Of a stretch of 64,000 nt of DNA, positions 16,569-64,000 are shown piece after piece. Origin of the DNA: a virus; the IMG/VR virus record IMGVR_UViG_3300031251_000002, positions 102,451 to 166,450 of that record; one strand, given 5' to 3'. Position 1 is the first letter of the stretch, and every line of letters begins with the position of its first letter. Below the pieces are notes generated by a model. It searched no databases. It saw only the letters and a list, made by a program, of their open reading frames with translations, and had not been told where the DNA came from. Made by a program: the position numbers and the translations under genes.

Positions 16569-19500
16569 ATGGCAATTCCTGCAAGTCCTGATCTAATCAC
16601 CGTTCTGACCTCAGACGGTGATGTTGATCTATTTCTGCCGTCCGACATCTATCGGTATGACTTCGATAACCGTCCGCTTCGTAACCTCATTCTGAATGAC
16701 GAGAGTCTTCAGACCGGGGCGAACGAGGCGATTACAGAGACATTCAACTCCCGCTATCCGGGTGTTGACTGGCTGACAACGACAGGTGCGCGAGGCCCAT
16801 ACCTAAACCTTAAGGCTCGTCTTGACGACATGGATTCGTCCGTCAAGAAGAACATCTACAGCCTTAATCAAGAACTGGCTGCTCGCTACCGGAGTCAGTA
16901 CGCCTCGGGCTTCTTCCTGAAGACAGGAGAGGTCTACGATGCCAACGTATTTGACGTAGTGAGCGCGTCCAGCACCCACATCCCGTTCGGTGCGATCTGC
17001 GTCCCGGATGCGAACCCGAATGACGTTAGCTCCAACCTCACATCTTCGATTCCTGCCAACTCGGTTTGGATCTCGACTCATGAGGGAACACGCTCGCCCT
17101 TTGTGGCTAAGCCGATTGAGGCGATGCTGGGCGGTTTCCATGTCCGTCTGTTCAACGAGTCCGCGCATGGCGCAGCCACATCTGGCTTCACCAACGGCGT
17201 GTCGATCCTGTTCGATGCAGCCCCAAGCAGCGGTCAGCGCTTCGATCTCGCCTTCCTAGAGTTCTGGTTCGCCCCGGTTGACGGCGGGCTGGCCAACACA
17301 GGTGGCACCGACTCCTTCTACGAGTACGGCGCTGTAGACTCCAACGCTTCACGGTCTGTTGACCAGTCAGCCGCAGCGGTTCAGGGAACCGTGTGGTTCG
17401 ATCCGACTACGATTGGCAACTACATTCAGTTGCGCCATCGGATCCGCGTCGTATCGAACATTGATTACGTCAACAAGCCATTCGGCATCAACGATGCGTC
17501 TGTCGTTGCACAGGGCGGTGCCGGTTCCCCGGTCGGTGGAAAGACATTCGTCAACGGCCTGTCGGTAATCAGCGATCCGGCGATCTGGGTTGCTGGAAGT
17601 GGCTCAGGCGGCGACAAGACAGCCCTCGGCACCTCGGATGGGTACGTGTACGCGATCCCGATGATGATCGTTTCGCGTAAGAACACGGCTGCGTGGAGCC
17701 TCTCTAATCAGAACGGCGGTCAGGCATCCAACTTCGGTGCTGGCGGACGACCGGATGGTTACACGCACCAGAAGTTCTCGCGTGGCGACATTCTTGACAT
17801 CCGTCCTCGCGCTTTCATGGATCGTACGAGCCTGATTGACGCGACTGAGGAATCATTCGACAAGCTGCTTCGTGGACGCCTTTTGACGGCCATGAGCCAG
17901 ATGTCCTACGAAGCCGGTTCGGATCTGTTCACCCAGTCACACCTAGGAACGTTTACGGATCCAGTCGGGATGTACGGAACCGAGCTTCTGGAGATGAACC
18001 AGCTTGGTACGACGAACACCGCGCACACGCATCCGATTCGTGACTTTTTGGACAACGGTTCGCTCGCCGTCGCTAGGCCAACGGGTTTGCGTCGTGTCTT
18101 CAGCCCAAGTCGGGATACGCAGGTTCAACCGTTCCACATCAACTTGAATGGTGGAGCAACGACCAATGCAGATTTCGTGACATGGGCACCTCCGGTCATT
18201 ACCTTGTTTGCAGCCGGTGTTTCGGCTCTCGGTCCTGCGAACGCAGTGATCGAAAGCGTTCCCATCATGTCGTGGCGCACCACGCACCTGCCGGTTGTTA
18301 CCATCGGTAATTGGTCAGGAATCGGCACCAATCAAGCAACCGCGACGGTTGATACGGGCGGGGTTGGTTATGACGCGACCGACACGATTGACGGGGCAGT
18401 GAACATCCGCTGGCCACAGTCAACCGGTCTGCGCCACTCGCCTACGCGGATTGACTATCAAGACTGGACCGCTGGCGCGAACGGATCTGGCAGCATCACC
18501 CCGTCCATCCGGGCTACCGGGTTGAACGGCGGTACGGGTGGCGCTCAGGGTCCGACCGGCCTCTTTGTTTCAACAGACGGCCACATCTACGTCTGCGATA
18601 CTAGCAATCACCGGATTCAAATCTATGCTCCGCCCGCACCGACTGATACGACGTTCACCATCGTAGGTCAGTTCCCCGGCTCAATCGGCACGTTGCCGGG
18701 TCCGGGATCTGACAACGCGCATCTAAATTCCCCACAGGCTGTGGCGGTTGATGGTTCTGGCAACATCTATGTTGCTGACACCAACAATCATCGGGTTGTG
18801 AAGCTGTCCAATGCGCTTCCGCTACCGGCCTACGTGAGCCAGTTCGGCACTGGCAGCATTGGAACAGGAACGACACATCTCAACACCCCACAGGGCGTTG
18901 TGGCTGGCGTCTCCAACGTCTACATCTCTGACACGAACAACTATCGTGTAGTGAAGCTTGACGGTTCATTGACCTTCGTAGACCAGTTCGGCGTAACCGG
19001 TGTACCGGGTTCGGATGCGACCCACTGCTTGAGTCCGCAGCGCCTCACGACTGGCATTGGTGGTTCGGGTGGTCGCCTCATCGTGGCTGACCAGACCCGC
19101 GTTCTAGTTTTGAACTCTGCCCCCTCACCGATGACGCTTGATCGGGTTCTTGTGGGTGGTCAGGGCTATGCAGACGGCACAGCCATCACCGCTTTGAACG
19201 CCATCAAGTCCATGGCTATCGTAGAAGACAGCAGCGGTAACAAGTACGTCAGCGGCGGTGGAACCTCAGCCATCTTCAAATTCAACTCGTCGTGGGTTCT
19301 TCAGGCCAAGTTTGGTGCGGGTACGAATGACCTGACAAGCTTGTGGTACGGCCCTGCGGATCCTAATTTCAACACGCATTGCGGGCTTACCGGGAACATC
19401 GTTGTTGATTCGGCAAACGGCTTTGTCTACGTAGCTGACAACACCTACGGCGTCTCCCCCGGCTATGCGCGAGTCCTAGTTCTTAATATTGCTGACTTGA

Positions 19501-21467
19501 CGTATCACAATGAGCTTTTGCTTTCGACGCCGCGTCCGTGGATGGACGGCTCGTCAGTTCTCCCGAAGTCCCCGACCCCGAACTACGTGCAGCCGTCCTG
19601 CAACATCGCTATGGATCTGGTCAACACGGAGATTTACATCACTCTGGACACGCTGGCATGCGTAGAAAAGTGGGACACCTCCCCGAGCGCGGGCAACCCG
19701 AATCTCTGGGCATACGAGACCAAGTTTGGCAATGGAACGCACATCACGGAATGGCCGTACTATCAAGGCTGGCGCAGTCCTGCTGACGATGCTCACAGCT
19801 TCTCGTTCCCCAAGACGGTCGCTGTCTCTCCCGATGGTTCGACCCTGTACGTGGGCGATCAGAATTTCCGAGCGCTTAACGACGGCCACCACGCAAGCCG
19901 TATCGTTAGCCTGACATGCAACACGGTCCCGATGACCATGAACGCATGGTTTGGCGACCTGAACGTAGCTGACACCTCTTGCGACCTCGGCTCAACCACT
20001 GACACGCCGTACTTCCAGTCCGTCAGCGGGCTGGTGGCGCAGGGAACCCGCGTTTACGCAACCGATGCGTACGCGAACCCGCCGCTTCTCGTTGTTCTTG
20101 ATGTCGCTGGCTGGACGGGAGTGACCCGAGTTACCGCGCCGTTCAAGGAAGCGATTACAGACACGACATGGACCTCAGCCAGCATCCCGGCTAGCGGTGT
20201 AAGCAGCAACTACCTGACGGTCAACGGGGGCAACTACAACGCTGTTCTAGGCGACTCGACGGTGCTGTACATCAACCCCGGTTTCTCGACCCAGCGCTGG
20301 GCTATCGACAACAGTGTTGTAACCGGCGCAAGTGTCGATAACCCGTTACGCGCTTTCCTGACCCTCGGAACCGGGATCGCGGTGCAGAAGCCGATTCAAA
20401 GCACCCAGCCGTTTGTCGGTGTCAGCGGTGTCTGGTACGACGCTTCAGTTACCCCAAACCGACTGGTGATCTCGGATCAAGTGACCAACGAAGTCTATGT
20501 CGTTTCGGTAGACATTGACACAAACTCGCTCCCAGCAGACTTCACGCTTCTGGGCGAGGCGGGCACCGCAGGTGTCTCAGGCTTCGGCTTCGGTGGCTGG
20601 GCACATCCAACGTCGGTCGCCATGAAGCAGTTGAGTGGAATCGACTACTTCTACTACACGGACTTCTACAACGGCTCGCTCCAGCGGTCATCGCCGTACT
20701 TTGCCTTCATCGAACGCGGAACCGGGCGGATCGAATGTCTTCTGCCGCCACCGGCAGGAACGACACTCCGGGTCTACTCGCGGTTCACCCCCTATCAGGG
20801 TGTCTACGTGCGGCCTGACTTCCTTGGCAACTCCGCGCACAACTCGACGGCCTACGCCCAGTCCTTGTTTGCTTCGCGCCTAGTCGTGAAGCCGTACAAG
20901 ATGCTGGCAACGACCCTTGGCCGGGTAGGTATCGACTCCGGAAACCTGATCACTGAGACCGCCTACTCTTCGCCGCTATCCCATCTTCCGCTTCCTCTGG
21001 GAACGACGACGGAGTACGCATGGCAGGGGGATCGCCTTCAGTTCATCGGGGACATGATCTCTCCGTCCAGCCTAGTGGTCCTGCCGCTGGTTCAGCTTGG
21101 CTCACAGCCTCAGGAGTGGGACACCGACTCGGAGTCCTTCTACGAGCGCTCAACCCGCATCGGTCGGCTGGAGGATCCAATCCTTAACAACGGCCACGGT
21201 GGAGCGCCCAGCTACACGCTGGCATCCAACGAGTTCCCGGTTGTTCAGTCCTTCTCGCTGTCCAACGTGGTTCCACACATCAACTACACATGGGGCACGG
21301 TTGATTACTATGGTGAGCTTCTCTTGTTCGTTCGCGGTGACTTCAATCTAAGTAACAAGAACGTCGTTGGTCCTAGGATCAATCCGTTCGTTCAGACAAA
21401 CACTGTTGTTGAGCTATACCGGATGAATGGAAACCCCTTCACTCGGATGGTTGAGACTAGAGGCTAA
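16569..21467 (+). CDS. Large tail fibre protein with NHL beta-propeller repeats
   Basis: 1632 aa; repeated units GPTGLFVSTDGHIYVCDTSNHRIQ, LNSPQAVAVDGSGNIYVADTNNHRVVK and LNTPQGV...YISDTNNYRVVK. Confidence 0.8.
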   Translation: MAIPASPDLITVLTSDGDVDLFLPSDIYRYDFDNRPLRNLILNDESLQTGANEAITETFNSRYPGVDWLTTTGARGPYLNLKARLDDMDSSVKKNIYSLNQELAARYRSQYASGFFLKTGEVYDANVFDVVSASSTHIPFGAICVPDANPNDVSSNLTSSIPANSVWISTHEGTRSPFVAKPIEAMLGGFHVRLFNESAHGAATSGFTNGVSILFDAAPSSGQRFDLAFLEFWFAPVDGGLANTGGTDSFYEYGAVDSNASRSVDQSAAAVQGTVWFDPTTIGNYIQLRHRIRVVSNIDYVNKPFGINDASVVAQGGAGSPVGGKTFVNGLSVISDPAIWVAGSGSGGDKTALGTSDGYVYAIPMMIVSRKNTAAWSLSNQNGGQASNFGAGGRPDGYTHQKFSRGDILDIRPRAFMDRTSLIDATEESFDKLLRGRLLTAMSQMSYEAGSDLFTQSHLGTFTDPVGMYGTELLEMNQLGTTNTAHTHPIRDFLDNGSLAVARPTGLRRVFSPSRDTQVQPFHINLNGGATTNADFVTWAPPVITLFAAGVSALGPANAVIESVPIMSWRTTHLPVVTIGNWSGIGTNQATATVDTGGVGYDATDTIDGAVNIRWPQSTGLRHSPTRIDYQDWTAGANGSGSITPSIRATGLNGGTGGAQGPTGLFVSTDGHIYVCDTSNHRIQIYAPPAPTDTTFTIVGQFPGSIGTLPGPGSDNAHLNSPQAVAVDGSGNIYVADTNNHRVVKLSNALPLPAYVSQFGTGSIGTGTTHLNTPQGVVAGVSNVYISDTNNYRVVKLDGSLTFVDQFGVTGVPGSDATHCLSPQRLTTGIGGSGGRLIVADQTRVLVLNSAPSPMTLDRVLVGGQGYADGTAITALNAIKSMAIVEDSSGNKYVSGGGTSAIFKFNSSWVLQAKFGAGTNDLTSLWYGPADPNFNTHCGLTGNIVVDSANGFVYVADNTYGVSPGYARVLVLNIADLTYHNELLLSTPRPWMDGSSVLPKSPTPNYVQPSCNIAMDLVNTEIYITLDTLACVEKWDTSPSAGNPNLWAYETKFGNGTHITEWPYYQGWRSPADDAHSFSFPKTVAVSPDGSTLYVGDQNFRALNDGHHASRIVSLTCNTVPMTMNAWFGDLNVADTSCDLGSTTDTPYFQSVSGLVAQGTRVYATDAYANPPLLVVLDVAGWTGVTRVTAPFKEAITDTTWTSASIPASGVSSNYLTVNGGNYNAVLGDSTVLYINPGFSTQRWAIDNSVVTGASVDNPLRAFLTLGTGIAVQKPIQSTQPFVGVSGVWYDASVTPNRLVISDQVTNEVYVVSVDIDTNSLPADFTLLGEAGTAGVSGFGFGGWAHPTSVAMKQLSGIDYFYYTDFYNGSLQRSSPYFAFIERGTGRIECLLPPPAGTTLRVYSRFTPYQGVYVRPDFLGNSAHNSTAYAQSLFASRLVVKPYKMLATTLGRVGIDSGNLITETAYSSPLSHLPLPLGTTTEYAWQGDRLQFIGDMISPSSLVVLPLVQLGSQPQEWDTDSESFYERSTRIGRLEDPILNNGHGGAPSYTLASNEFPVVQSFSLSNVVPHINYTWGTVDYYGELLLFVRGDFNLSNKNVVGPRINPFVQTNTVVELYRMNGNPFTRMVETRG

Positions 21468-61293: not shown

Positions 61294-61944
61294 TGAAACG
61301 ACCAGCAAGGCTCTACAAGGGCCTAAAGACAACGGCTGACCTATCGACCAAGCGAACCATTATCCCGGTCGCTCTGCCGATTCTGGAGTGGATAGAGGCC
61401 AACCATGATCGCCTTGGCGTTTGCAAGGCGAGGCTGTTTAATGATCTAGTCGCCAGTGCGATCAAGAGTAACGACATTCGATTTAAGGGGCTGGAATGAG
61501 CAAGGTTAGCAAGCTGGGTGGGGACGCAGAGAACCAGATCCATGGGGATGAATGCATTGACGATTGCGACGGCTGTCCCTGCTGGTGTCATCCCGGCAAG
61601 AAGAAGCTGAAGTTGAATCCAACGGCCTATCTGGAGCTTCTGACCGAGGCCGAGAAGTACGCTCAGGCAATCGACCATGAGTACCAGACCCCGGAAATGA
61701 GCCGCTTCCTGTCCGCAGTCAAGAACGCAAGGGGGCTTCTCGATGGATAACGTTACCAAGTTCAAACTGCCCCCGAGACCGAGGCCGTATCTGGGTAACC
61801 CGATTCTTCAGACCCCGTGCGACCTGTGCGGCGCGGATCGGTATGCCGAGCCGGTCTGGGACACCGAGTTGGGATGCGTCGTGGCGATGACTCTTCTCGA
61901 TCATCCCTGCATCAAAAAAGTTGATTCGTTGAAAAAATAGGGTC

Positions 61945-61978
61945 TTGACATCGAGAACGCCCTGAAAGAAGATACTTA
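61945..61978 (+). promoter_or_regulatory. Promoter of the tRNA locus
   Basis: TTGACA-N17-GAAGAT, overlapping GCC-N9-GATACTTA (also seen at 16030 and 22114); either reading puts the start at or within about 3 nt of ATG 61983. Confidence 0.7.
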
Positions 61979-61982
61979 CATC

Positions 61983-62096
61983 ATGTTGACGCGCTGGTAT
62001 CTCTCCGCAAGCCCCAATAGCTTTTCAAAAAAGCATGGGGTCGAACTGTGCCCAGCGACTATGCTTAGGCAGCAGATCGAGGGTACGGATATCTAG
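61983..62096 (+). CDS. Attenuator leader peptide, 37 aa: MLTRWYLSASPNSFSKKHGVELCPATMLRQQIEGTDI
   Basis: Translated by hand; no SD (leaderless); encodes all 20 amino acids with 32 distinct codons; its stop overlaps the antiterminator 5' arm. Confidence 0.75.
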   Translation: MLTRWYLSASPNSFSKKHGVELCPATMLRQQIEGTDI

Positions 62097-62154
62097 GGCT
62101 TTGGGGTTTCAGAAGTAGGATCCACCAAAGCCCGCCTAGAAAGCGGGCTTTTTT
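62096..62154 (+). terminator. Mutually exclusive antiterminator and terminator (attenuator)
   Basis: GGGCTTTGG (62096-62104) pairs with CCAAAGCCC (62125-62133). Alternatively AAAGCCCGC (62127-62135) pairs with GCGGGCTTT (62143-62151), with a T6 run at 62149-62154. Confidence 0.85.
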
Positions 62155-62170
62155 GTTGGTCGGTCCGGTT

Positions 62171-62183
62171 TGATCGTTGAAAA
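62171..62183 (+). promoter_or_regulatory. boxA-like antitermination element
   Basis: TGATCGTTGAAAA resembles rrn boxA (TG[A/C/T]TCTTT[G/A]A[A/C]AA); lies between the attenuator and the first tRNA. Confidence 0.6.
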
Positions 62184-62225
62184 TTTAGGTGCCCCCAACG
62201 AAGTGGGGGCGCAGCATTGCTCAGC

Positions 62226-62299
62226 AGGAGCGTGGTGTAATAGCAGCACGACGGATTCCAAACCCGTCAGCGAGGGGGCAGTACCTTCCGCTCCTGCCA
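62226..62299 (+). tRNA. tRNA-Trp (CCA)
   Basis: Acceptor AGGAGCG/CGCTCCT + GCCA; anticodon loop TTCCAAA; atypical T-loop GGCAGTA. Confidence 0.85.
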
Positions 62300-62302
62300 A
62301 TT

Positions 62303-62390
62303 GGATAGGTGGCGAAATGGTAGCCGCGCTGGTTTGCTAAACCGGTGAGCCTCCTTGGCTCTGTGGGTTCAAGTCCCTCCCTATCCTCCA
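62303..62390 (+). tRNA. tRNA-Ser (GCT)
   Basis: GGATAGG/CCTATCC + TCCA; loop TTGCTAA; long variable arm; TTCAAGT. Confidence 0.92.
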
Positions 62391-62391
62391 T

Positions 62392-62467
62392 GGACTGCTA
62401 GCTTTGAAGGTCAAAGCGCCCACCTGAAGAGCGGGAGAACGTCGTTCAATTCGACGGCAGTCCACCA
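62392..62467 (+). tRNA. tRNA-Phe (GAA)
   Basis: GGACTGC/GCAGTCC + ACCA; loop CTGAAGA; TTCAATT. Confidence 0.9.
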
Positions 62468-62478
62468 TGAAAGTTTTT

Positions 62479-62551
62479 AGTAGGGAGAATGAGTATTCCA
62501 GTTGGTCTCATAAGCCAACCTCCGTGGGTGCGACTCCCACCCCTGCTACCA
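62479..62551 (+). tRNA. tRNA with CAT anticodon (Met or Ile2), short D-loop
   Basis: AGTAGGG/CCCTGCT + ACCA; loop CTCATAA; D-arm GAAT-GAGT-ATTC; T-loop TGCGACT. Confidence 0.8.
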
Positions 62552-62552
62552 T

Positions 62553-62626
62553 GCCTTCGTAGCCAAGTAGTTAGGCACCGGTCTGCAAAACCGGTTACGT
62601 TGGTGCAATTCCAACCGAAGGCTCCA
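62553..62626 (+). tRNA. tRNA-Cys (GCA)
   Basis: GCCTTCG/CGAAGGC + TCCA (U73); loop CTGCAAA. Confidence 0.9.
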
Positions 62627-62639
62627 TTGAAATCGGTCT

Positions 62640-62706
62640 GGGGGAAGAGACGTTCGACTCGTCAAGAGGGGCTTGCTCCTCCTTAGTGTAACGGCAGCAC
62701 TCCCCC
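62640..62706 (+). ncRNA. Circularly permuted tRNA mimic (YrlA / Y-RNA-like module)
   Basis: Order is GGGGG, T-arm (GACG-TTCGACT-CGTC), loop-closed acceptor-like stem, TA, D-arm (GTGT-AACGGCA-GCAC), CCCCC. Confidence 0.75.
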
Positions 62707-62806
62707 GTGCAAATGACAGCCGTAAGGCGCGGGTAAAACGTAGGCGTCACGACACGCCAACCCTTCAAAGAAGGGGCCGTCATTTGGTAATTTCCTCTAA
62801 ATCAAT

Positions 62807-62881
62807 CCGGGTGTGGGTCAGTGGCTGATCGCCTGTTTCGGGGACAGGATTAGGGAGGTTCAATTCCTCTCACCCGGACCA
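62807..62881 (+). tRNA. tRNA-Pro (CGG)
   Basis: CCGGGTG/CACCCGG + ACCA; loop TTCGGGG; TTCAATT. Confidence 0.9.
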
Positions 62882-62977
62882 AAGTTTCCCGAAGAATTCC
62901 GAGAACTGTTTGGTGGTAGCTTGTCAAGGAGCCGGGGGGTATATGAAAACCCACGGTGAAAGTAGAAACCACAAACC

Positions 62978-63067
62978 GGGCAAGTCGGATAGTAGCGATT
63001 CCAGCAGACTGTAAATCTGCCCTGTTTACAGCTAACACCGAAGGTGCAATTCCTTCCTTGCCCACCA
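62978..63067 (+). tRNA. tRNA-Tyr (GTA)
   Basis: GGGCAAG/CTTGCCC + ACCA; loop CTGTAAA; long variable arm; T-loop TGCAATT. Confidence 0.9.
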
Positions 63068-63069
63068 TC

Positions 63070-63078
63070 TGCTATAAT
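63070..63078 (+). promoter_or_regulatory. Extended -10 promoter inside the tRNA array
   Basis: TGCTATAAT, a perfect TGn-TATAAT. Confidence 0.5.
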
Positions 63079-63154
63079 TTTTGAATGCCGCATACAGTCG
63101 AGACTCATACCCGGACACGGGCCGAGTTTCGGGCACGAACCGGGAAACGTTAAT

Positions 63155-63231
63155 CCGCAGGTGAGGCAATTGGCAGACCTTCCAAACTCAAAATTTGGAG
63201 CTTGCGAGTTCAAATCTCGCCCTGCGGACCA
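63155..63231 (+). tRNA. tRNA-Leu (CAA), lacking the long variable arm
   Basis: CCGCAGG/CCTGCGG + ACCA; loop CTCAAAA; variable region of only 5 nt (AGCTT). Confidence 0.88.
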
Positions 63232-63341
63232 TTTGATGAACCATGGAACCTCTGCTACTGAACGAGTGTTGTGTTCGGGGTAGCACGTTCAAGTCACAGC
63301 CACAACCTTCTGACAGCCATGGTTCTTCAAATGGAGGTAAC

Positions 63342-63617
63342 GTGAACGAAAGACAGGCATACGAAACGAAGGTGTTACCAGACGGGCGAGTAATTGATGT
63401 TTACCCGCTGACGTTCGGTCGCGCTAGGATCACGATTTCTGAGTCCTTGTCGGATCCGTGTTACCTCGACGGTTGGTGATACGACACTCCAAAAGCCGCA
63501 GTTGCGGCGATGAAAAATTGGGATGGGACAGGCGAACCTGATGGCTGGATGAGACATCCGAGATCGGGCCGACGCCGCGAACACGGAGATCCCAAAACTG
63601 AATATGTGAATCTGTAG
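63342..63617 (+). CDS. 91-aa protein with an in-frame TGA (63477-63479); candidate selenoprotein or readthrough gene
   Basis: SD GGAGGT and GTG start; 45 codons, TGA, then 45 more open codons to TAG; hairpin GCCGC-AGTT-GCGGC 15 nt after the TGA. Confidence 0.65.
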
Positions 63618-63715
63618 ACTAGTGCGGTTTTCTCTCTCGTTCCGCCTAAATAAAACGAGAAGCGGGTGGCCGTCCCGCGAACAAACCAATCGGCCATGTA
63701 TGCTAAAATTCGGAC

Positions 63716-64000
63716 ATGGGAAATCACAAAGTTGGTTGTGCGTGTCCGTTCTGTAGTCGTAAAGGAAGAAAGCGCTCTAAGGAAGAATTAGCCTTGATGG
63801 GGCGTACTGGTTGTCGAAATCGTACAGAGTACGAACGAGCGCTTTCTGAAAAGTTAGTCGGAGAAGGTTACGAGGTCTTCTCTCCGTGGTCAGCGTGTGA
63901 TCGAGTAGCATTGAAAGACGGCAAGGTATTTTTCGTGGAATTCAAAAAGCCACAACAGGAGCTAAGCCCAATTCAACAACGTGTTCATGATGCGCTCCCG
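63716..64000 (+). CDS. VRR-NUC-like PD-(D/E)XK nuclease, 3'-truncated
   Basis: Translated by hand: CDRVALKDGKVFFVEFKKPQQELSPIQQRVH. An extended -10 TGCTAAAAT (63701-63709) lies 6 nt before the ATG. Confidence 0.75.
   Translation, partial: MGNHKVGCACPFCSRKGRKRSKEELALMGRTGCRNRTEYERALSEKLVGEGYEVFSPWSACDRVALKDGKVFFVEFKKPQQELSPIQQRVHDALP

Follow-up and report, generated by a model that had tools for sequence, protein, structure and literature searches.

An in-frame stop codon followed by a SECIS-like hairpin marks a candidate selenoprotein gene in a bacteriophage

Our analysis indicates that the open reading frame at positions 63342-63617 of the window, by which we mean the whole 64-kb stretch of DNA analysed here, is most probably a single unbroken gene whose product is a 91-residue phage protein, with an in-frame UGA decoded as selenocysteine (Sec). 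We put the probability of this reading at roughly 80%. It is carried by the observations that a stop codon is conserved at the column where other members of the family have cysteine, that a covarying hairpin specific to the stop-containing forms follows it, that the sequence downstream of it is under selection in the same frame, and that TGA is a normal stop elsewhere in the genome. The identity of the inserted residue as Sec and of its reader as SelB are inferred. Sec insertion had been proposed in the initial annotation of this stretch, and the comparative tests suggested there came out in favour of it, although dependence on selenium and SelB stays a matter of inference. The window comprises the last 64 kb of a 166,450-bp IMG/VR phage record that is rated 100% complete and whose assembly is circular, since its ends overlap by 127 bp. 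The gene and its parts are laid out as follows:

63333..63337, + strand: Shine-Dalgarno sequence GGAGG, 4 nt upstream of the GTG start, read directly from the sequence
63342..63617, + strand: whole gene, with its GTG start at 63342 and 91 codons including the UGA (proposed Sec46); homologues span both halves
63477..63479, + strand: in-frame TGA, the proposed Sec codon, which aligns with the family's conserved Cys
63480..63494, + strand: spacer of 15 nt, TAC GAC ACT CCA AAA, from the stop-form alignment
63495..63508, + strand: SECIS-like hairpin with stem GCCGC/GCGGC, within the codons for A-A-V-A-A
63500-63503, + strand: apical loop AGUU of the hairpin, nt 24-27 when the U of UGA is counted as 1
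63480..63614, + strand: downstream half of the reading frame, 45 codons in the same frame as the upstream half, supported by in-frame pN/pS and the lack of a conserved internal start
63615-63617, + strand: terminal TAG, which ends the read-through reading frame

The read-through product is 91 aa long, made up of 45 codons, the TGA and 45 more codons before the TAG, and gene callers split the frame at the TGA. On rereading the sequence, the coordinates originally given for the reading frame and the hairpin were all correct, and so was the remark that the downstream half has no convincing start of its own: the sole in-frame ATG (63510) lacks a Shine-Dalgarno sequence and is not conserved in relatives. 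The next gene, at window 63716-64000 and continuing across the contig junction, encodes 104 aa, ends in TAG and is free of in-frame TGA codons. Its product has a Cys-rich N-terminus (C-x-C-P-x-C), a nuclease-like D...E-F-K motif can be made out by eye, and a tRNA-Ser lies directly 3' of the gene.

We gathered homologues from IMG/VR, scans of JGI metagenomes and the protein database, which yielded about 100 distinct sequences. Across 100 distinct homologues, the column aligned with the TGA of the window is occupied by TGA in 36, TAG in 2, TGC in 41 and TGT in 21, that is, by a stop in 38 and by Cys in 62. The window's UGA is kept by 35 other related phage sequences, with UAG in two more. The initial annotation had proposed looking for Cys or TGA at this position in homologues, and both were found there. 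When the read-through product was compared with cultured phages by tblastn, it matched single uninterrupted hypothetical genes, covered over both halves, in jumbo phages of Caulobacter, Brevundimonas and Sinorhizobium (37-40% identity), and the column is Cys in all three of the cultured-phage genes examined (D-R-[WY]-C-[YF]). The W-C-Y that the initial annotation gave for related proteins is borne out by the D-R-W-C-[YF] of the Cys-forms. The C-x5-U arrangement inferred at the same time is present in the window but is not a feature of the family, as the domain contains no further Cys in 27 of the 38 stop-forms. The stop-forms are only 47-68% identical to the window protein, and the GC content of their contigs ranges from 39 to 74%; this divergence and spread therefore point to many independent, old lineages and not to copies of one error.

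When a tree was built with the Sec/Cys column masked, all 29 stop-forms included fell into one clade. The sister of this clade is a Cys-form (SH-aLRT 94), one Cys-form and one Ser-form are nested inside it, and two state changes are enough to explain the distribution of Sec and Cys, as is usual for selenoprotein families in which the two residues are exchanged. The Ser-form (P0002, 98 aa, on a 1.6-kb Logan contig) reads D-E-W-S-Y around the column, is placed inside the Sec clade beside the Cys-form L101, and may be an inactive or differently acting derivative. Some other copies have an unusual structure. Only the C-terminal half of the family gene is found at L017:285-413 (in the 180-kb record IMGVR_UViG_3300032893_000002), where the copy begins with an ATG just past the hairpin region and lacks the Sec codon as well as the N-terminal half; it is a remnant or else a C-terminal module that stands alone. 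At L010:2086-3237, no stop interrupts the frame of the family gene over more than 300 upstream codons, which include an HNH-endonuclease-like sequence (H-V-D-H ... C-P-P-C-N); the arrangement is either a fusion or two adjacent genes in the same frame without an intervening stop.

The hairpin GCCGC-AGTT-GCGGC described in the initial annotation is present in the window, with 20 nt between the TGA and the loop, which starts at the 21st nt, and with the G claimed at loop position 2. The window's own stem has only 5 bp and its loop is AGUU, not GGUC, and a single 5-bp hairpin alone would be at chance level; what lifts it above chance is that 38 distinct homologues share the stop and the hairpin at one and the same place. 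With few exceptions, the stop-forms carry a hairpin of 5-10 bp with a loop starting 21 nt after the stop (at exactly the 21st nt in 32/38), and the Cys-forms have no common position. The best stem near the site has a mean length of 7.0 bp in the 38 stop-forms, whereas the mean in the 62 Cys-forms is 4.0 bp. The loops of the stop-forms are GGTC in 21 (and GGTCG in 3), AGTT in 6 (and AGTTG in 1) and CGTGC in 1, with GU at loop positions 2-3 in nearly all of them (GGUC, AGUU or CGUG(C)), and the Cys-forms share no common loop.

We computed covariation on an alignment of 33 stop-form sequences and counted pairs on the hairpin structure given above, because the RNAalifold consensus for the stop-form alignment (A4) was uninformative. 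The covariation score was 0.356, compared with 0.187 +/- 0.022 for shuffled alignments (none of 500 reached the score) and 0.10-0.20 for slid controls. The pair at columns 33-42 is CG in 8 sequences, UA in 7, GC in 5, UG in 3 and AU in 2, and the pair at columns 30-45 is GC in 9, CG in 7, AU in 6 and GU in 6; both of these varying pairs lie at third-codon, synonymous positions, and pairing is kept. A proposed lower helix between the Thr-Pro codons and the Trp-Asp codons showed no covariation. The TAC-GAC after the stop is nearly invariant at the nucleotide level in the stop-forms, and the corresponding "YD" follows the stop in 33 of the 38 and is variable in the Cys-forms, which also have no conserved peptide of the A-A-V-A-A type at the hairpin site. 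A hairpin embedded in A-A-V-A-A codons, with no such conserved peptide in the Cys-forms, is the pattern expected of an RNA signal that constrains the coding sequence. One caveat is that a coding stretch for Ala-Ala-Val-Ala-Ala is inherently GC-palindromic, but the covariation at third positions and the absence of the hairpin from the Cys-forms argue against a purely protein-level cause. A hairpin that is conserved and covarying in the stop-forms and absent from the Cys-forms supports the Sec reading first made from the window alone.

The distance between UGA and apical loop in bacteria has been given as 16-37 nt (PMC10778597, citing Zhang & Gladyshev 2005), and the 20 nt found in the window and in 32 of the 38 stop-forms fall inside this range. 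For comparison, we used the SECIS of Escherichia coli fdhF, a sequence that 5,419 of 5,426 complete E. coli genomes contain in fdhF at 100% identity; its apical loop GGTC occupies nt 22-25, versus nt 24-27 for the phage loops, with the U of UGA as 1. In fdhF, the bases read by SelB are G23 and U24. The Rfam SECIS families, whose models are gene- and lineage-specific, gave no match at E<=1 in 61800-64000, and a crude scan of the genome for a TGA followed by a GU-loop hairpin returned other sites only in the wrong frame within real genes, apart from one unresolved site at genome position 8448. The window gene shows several features of a bacterial-type selenoprotein gene, namely an in-frame UGA that aligns with Cys in homologues, the spacing, the loop G (GU), compensatory change in the hairpin together with its absence from Cys orthologues, and in-frame translation 3' of the UGA as judged from pN/pS.

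Exchange of Cys for a stop is accompanied by changes elsewhere in the protein. Arg is found at position -2 in 59 of the 62 Cys-forms and in none of the 38 stop-forms, which have G, A, V or other residues instead, and the first His of G-W-H-R-H, present in 60/62 Cys-forms, is Met (GW-M-RH) in 34/38 stop-forms. Such correlated changes are typical of the replacement of Cys by Sec, and we infer that Arg(-2) and His are thiol-activating or partner residues that could be dispensed with once a low-pKa selenol had replaced the thiol. AlphaFold2, run on a 69-sequence alignment, produced a model (pLDDT 95.2, pTM 0.85) with four predicted beta-strands, Sec46 at the end of the fourth, and then a helix and an ordered C-terminal region. 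The model confidently predicts a new fold, and its biochemical role is unassigned. Pfam has no family for the window protein, a sequence search of the PDB gave no match, and Foldseek found nothing in the PDB at E<=0.001; the best hit in the VIA wide fold search had a Z of 4.9. Only uncharacterised phage proteins were recovered from BFVD, and only "hypothetical protein" clusters from the language-model atlas. PADLOC returned nothing for the window protein, and no conserved neighbour genes were seen around family members. Two Cys-forms (P0004 and P0005) match phrog_24748, a family of unknown function, at 3.7e-9 and 1.4e-7; the window protein (P0001) has no match to it at E<=0.1, and its homology to P0004 and P0005 is supported at E 1e-16 to 1e-18.

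The nearest relatives of the window gene are L018 and L019 (70% identity), which come from two different soil metagenomes and have TAG at the Sec/Cys column (L018:603-605 of Ga0308174_10379004 and L019:2593-2595 of Ga0066703_10020688), followed by a GGUC hairpin as in most of the TGA-forms. Immediately upstream of the family gene, both contigs have a gene that ends in TAG, and their remaining genes terminate with TGA; TAG is therefore not reassigned in either of them. Searches with their neighbouring genes matched only actinobacteriophages: a ribonucleotide reductase fragment gave 957 records, all from phages of Actinobacteria and at <=63% identity, and a 216-aa protein gave 331 records, almost all from phages of Actinobacteria. 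On the basis of these matches, the contigs look actinophage-like. The bacteria reported to use UAG for Sec are soil Actinobacteria (Geodermatophilus, Blastococcus). The forms with UAG fit hosts that have a UAG-reading tRNA-Sec, or else Sec-independent readthrough. SECIS-directed insertion of Sec at UAG occurs naturally where the anticodon of tRNA-Sec matches (PMC10778597, citing Mukai 2016). The UAG forms are compatible with Sec, and even suggestive of it, and they are also the main support for the competing explanation by read-through discussed below. The simple picture of a host tRNA-Sec(UCA) from which the initial annotation started did not extend to these two close relatives.

We did not find selA, selB or selD in the phage genome, and the best score for a tRNA-Sec was 36 bits against a cut-off of 47, the match in question being a tRNA-Ser. 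The suggested search for selA/B/C/D in the rest of the genome thus came back empty, and no tRNA-Sec above the cut-off was found in five related phage records. As the phage has neither selA/B/D nor tRNA-Sec, the machinery of the host, which is unidentified, would be needed. The polymerase, baseplate and helicase of the window phage have only 24-30% matches, to a mixture of Bacillus, Streptomyces and cyanophage records. No Sec-forms were found in 185,579 bacterial and archaeal genomes, which suggests that they belong to lytic phages; a small number of Cys-forms were recovered from MAGs and from a Paracoccus plasmid.

Neither a UCA nor a CUA anticodon is present among the 27 ARAGORN tRNAs and 2 extra Rfam tRNAs of the phage. 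The two tRNAs detected by Rfam and missed by ARAGORN lie at window 62226-62296 (Trp(CCA), 39.6 bits) and 62479-62548 (CAT anticodon, 29.3 bits), and the tRNA array crosses the circular junction to the start of the genome, where there are 20 more ARAGORN tRNAs. An 86-nt tRNA-Val(GAC) called by ARAGORN at window 18741-18826 lies inside a 1,632-codon open reading frame (16569-21467); the call is probably spurious, unless the long frame is not one gene. In another phage record (IMGVR_UViG_3300032893_000002), a tRNA at L118:1502-1605 (- strand) scores 59 bits with the Rfam model and has the anticodon loop CUCUAAA, and thus a CUA anticodon, marking it as a possible amber suppressor. Its variable region contains about 30 inserted nt, and ARAGORN did not call it.

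One alternative is that the gene is broken or split, the TGA being a nonsense mutation or a sequencing error, or the downstream half a second gene that is re-initiated. A TGA is a single substitution away from TGC or TGT, and gene callers do split the frame, but we consider this explanation very improbable. In 36 stop-forms, pN/pS of the 22 codons from the E-P-x-G-W motif is 0.26 in frame versus 1.34 and 1.90 in the other two frames, and the 11 codons directly after the stop have a value of 0.42; at these codons just past the stop, the amino acids are retained and synonymous changes are seen. Beyond the stop, the stop-forms share no start codon or Shine-Dalgarno sequence. The pattern of substitution shows, as far as sequence alone can, that translation of the downstream half follows the frame of the upstream half, and the in-frame selection and the lack of a conserved start therefore rule out a nonsense mutation, an error of sequencing and a pair of separate genes. 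With 38 independent, divergent sequences that keep a stop at this codon, a broken or split gene is effectively refuted. Reassignment of TGA throughout the genome, as in codes 4/25, or a phage suppressor tRNA that reads every TGA, is the least credible of the alternatives, even though some phages recode stops and the window phage has a large set of tRNAs. Under translation table 11, long open reading frames cover 90% of the genome, and TGA is their commonest terminator (95/210). When TGA is treated as a sense codon, genes are fused (from 210 frames to 150) with little gain in coverage, and none of the tRNAs listed above has the UCA anticodon. Because TGA is the commonest ordinary stop in the genome, the code is not reassigned, which agrees with the initial judgement that genome-wide UGA reassignment was unlikely. 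On stop usage, genome-wide reassignment of either TGA or TAG was rejected.

The only serious rival to Sec insertion is programmed read-through that does not depend on Sec, in which the hairpin slows termination or stimulates near-cognate decoding of any stop, so that a 45-aa product is made together with a full-length protein that has an ordinary residue at position 46. This is unlikely in our view, but it has real support. The same hairpin accompanies both TGA and TAG at the site, TAG serves as a normal stop in the L018 and L019 contigs, and no Sec machinery is demonstrable in the phage; to account for TAG in two close relatives, one needs a mechanism without Sec or else hosts with a UAG-reading tRNA-Sec, which is rare. 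What speaks for Sec is that the stop replaces the one conserved Cys of the family. Near-cognate decoding inserts different residues, mostly Trp at UGA and Gln, Tyr or Lys at UAG, and would therefore give unlike residues at the two stop codons. The loop is of the fdhF-type N-GU-N form at SECIS distance, and the loss of Arg(-2) and His along with Cys is as expected for replacement by a chemically better residue, not for loss of the residue. Natural systems in which UAG encodes Sec are also documented (PMC10778597, citing Mukai 2016).

Under the Sec reading that we favour, the hairpin 15 nt downstream of the UGA would act on the mRNA as a bacterial-type SECIS, binding the host's SelB-GTP-Sec-tRNA(Sec) and delivering it to a ribosome paused at the UGA, where it would compete with release factor 2. 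The mRNA signal would be the phage's only contribution, and SelA, SelB, SelD and tRNA-Sec would all come from the host; the relatives with UAG would be read in hosts that have a tRNA-Sec with a CUA anticodon. As a further inference, Sec46 may be a single reactive residue, and our working guess for the function of the protein is accordingly a nucleophilic or redox centre or a soft-metal ligand formed by this one residue. A broader scenario, which we hold only tentatively and at somewhat under even odds, is that of a phage-specific selenoprotein family in which the recoded codon tracks the Sec codon of the host, being UGA in most members and UAG in the actinophage sub-lineage nearest to the window gene. 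Such a family would use host SelB and tRNA-Sec across several phyla, with the codon re-tuned for hosts that have a CUA-anticodon tRNA-Sec, and Sec would replace a Cys-Arg-His centre in a previously unseen small fold.

If the Sec reading is true, phages tap the selenocysteine machinery of their hosts with a minimal mRNA signal, and genes of this kind are systematically split by gene callers. Selenium availability and the sel genes of the host could then affect phage fitness and host range. The family would also provide a natural series of Sec, Cys and Ser versions of a 90-residue domain in which to ask why selection favours selenium, and nature would offer, in the occurrence of UGA and UAG in the same SECIS context, a test of how flexible the codon is in SelB-dependent decoding.

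The gene can be compared with several known systems. Like bacterial selenoprotein genes of the fdhF type, it has an in-frame UGA aligned with Cys and a hairpin directly 3' of it within the reading frame, and the GGUC loop is identical in most members of the phage family, with the central GU retained throughout the common variants (PMC10778597). It differs from them in being carried by a bacterial virus without Sec machinery, in encoding a 91-aa domain of unknown fold and function instead of a known oxidoreductase, in having no bulged U that we could see in the stem, and in having two family members that use UAG. Codons other than UGA are also recoded to Sec in nature (PMC10778597, citing Mukai 2016), which resembles the situation in L018 and L019, where a SECIS-type hairpin follows a UAG and UAG is a normal stop nearby; however, the known cases are cellular genes in genomes that hold the matching tRNA-Sec, whereas the tRNA for L018 and L019 is unseen and their host unidentified. 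Homologous over both halves are the hypothetical proteins of Caulobacter phage CcrBL9, Brevundimonas phage Kabachok and Sinorhizobium phage Phosso in phrog_24748, which share the motif W-D-G-x-G-E-P-x-G-W-x-R-H-P-x-[ST]-G-R-R-R with the window protein but have Cys, Arg(-2) and His, and no hairpin. In contrast to phages with reassigned stops, the window phage uses TGA as a terminator and has no UCA-anticodon tRNA.

Among viruses, selenoproteins have been described in poxviruses, with a GPx1-like protein in molluscum contagiosum virus and a GPx4-like protein in fowlpox virus, whose SECIS lies in the coding region (PMC8310308). These two glutathione peroxidases are the only virus-encoded selenoproteins named in a 2021 review of recoding (PMC8310308), and we found no natural phage selenoprotein in the literature searched. 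The poxvirus proteins are likewise encoded by a virus and dependent on the Sec machinery of the host, but they belong to eukaryotic viruses, rely on a eukaryotic SECIS and SBP2, and derive from captured cellular genes of known function, whereas the window family is phage-specific and has a SECIS of the bacterial type. The decoding mechanism, with Sec as the inferred residue, is of a known kind, and what is new is its occurrence in a phage, in a phage-specific family, and in both UGA and UAG versions.
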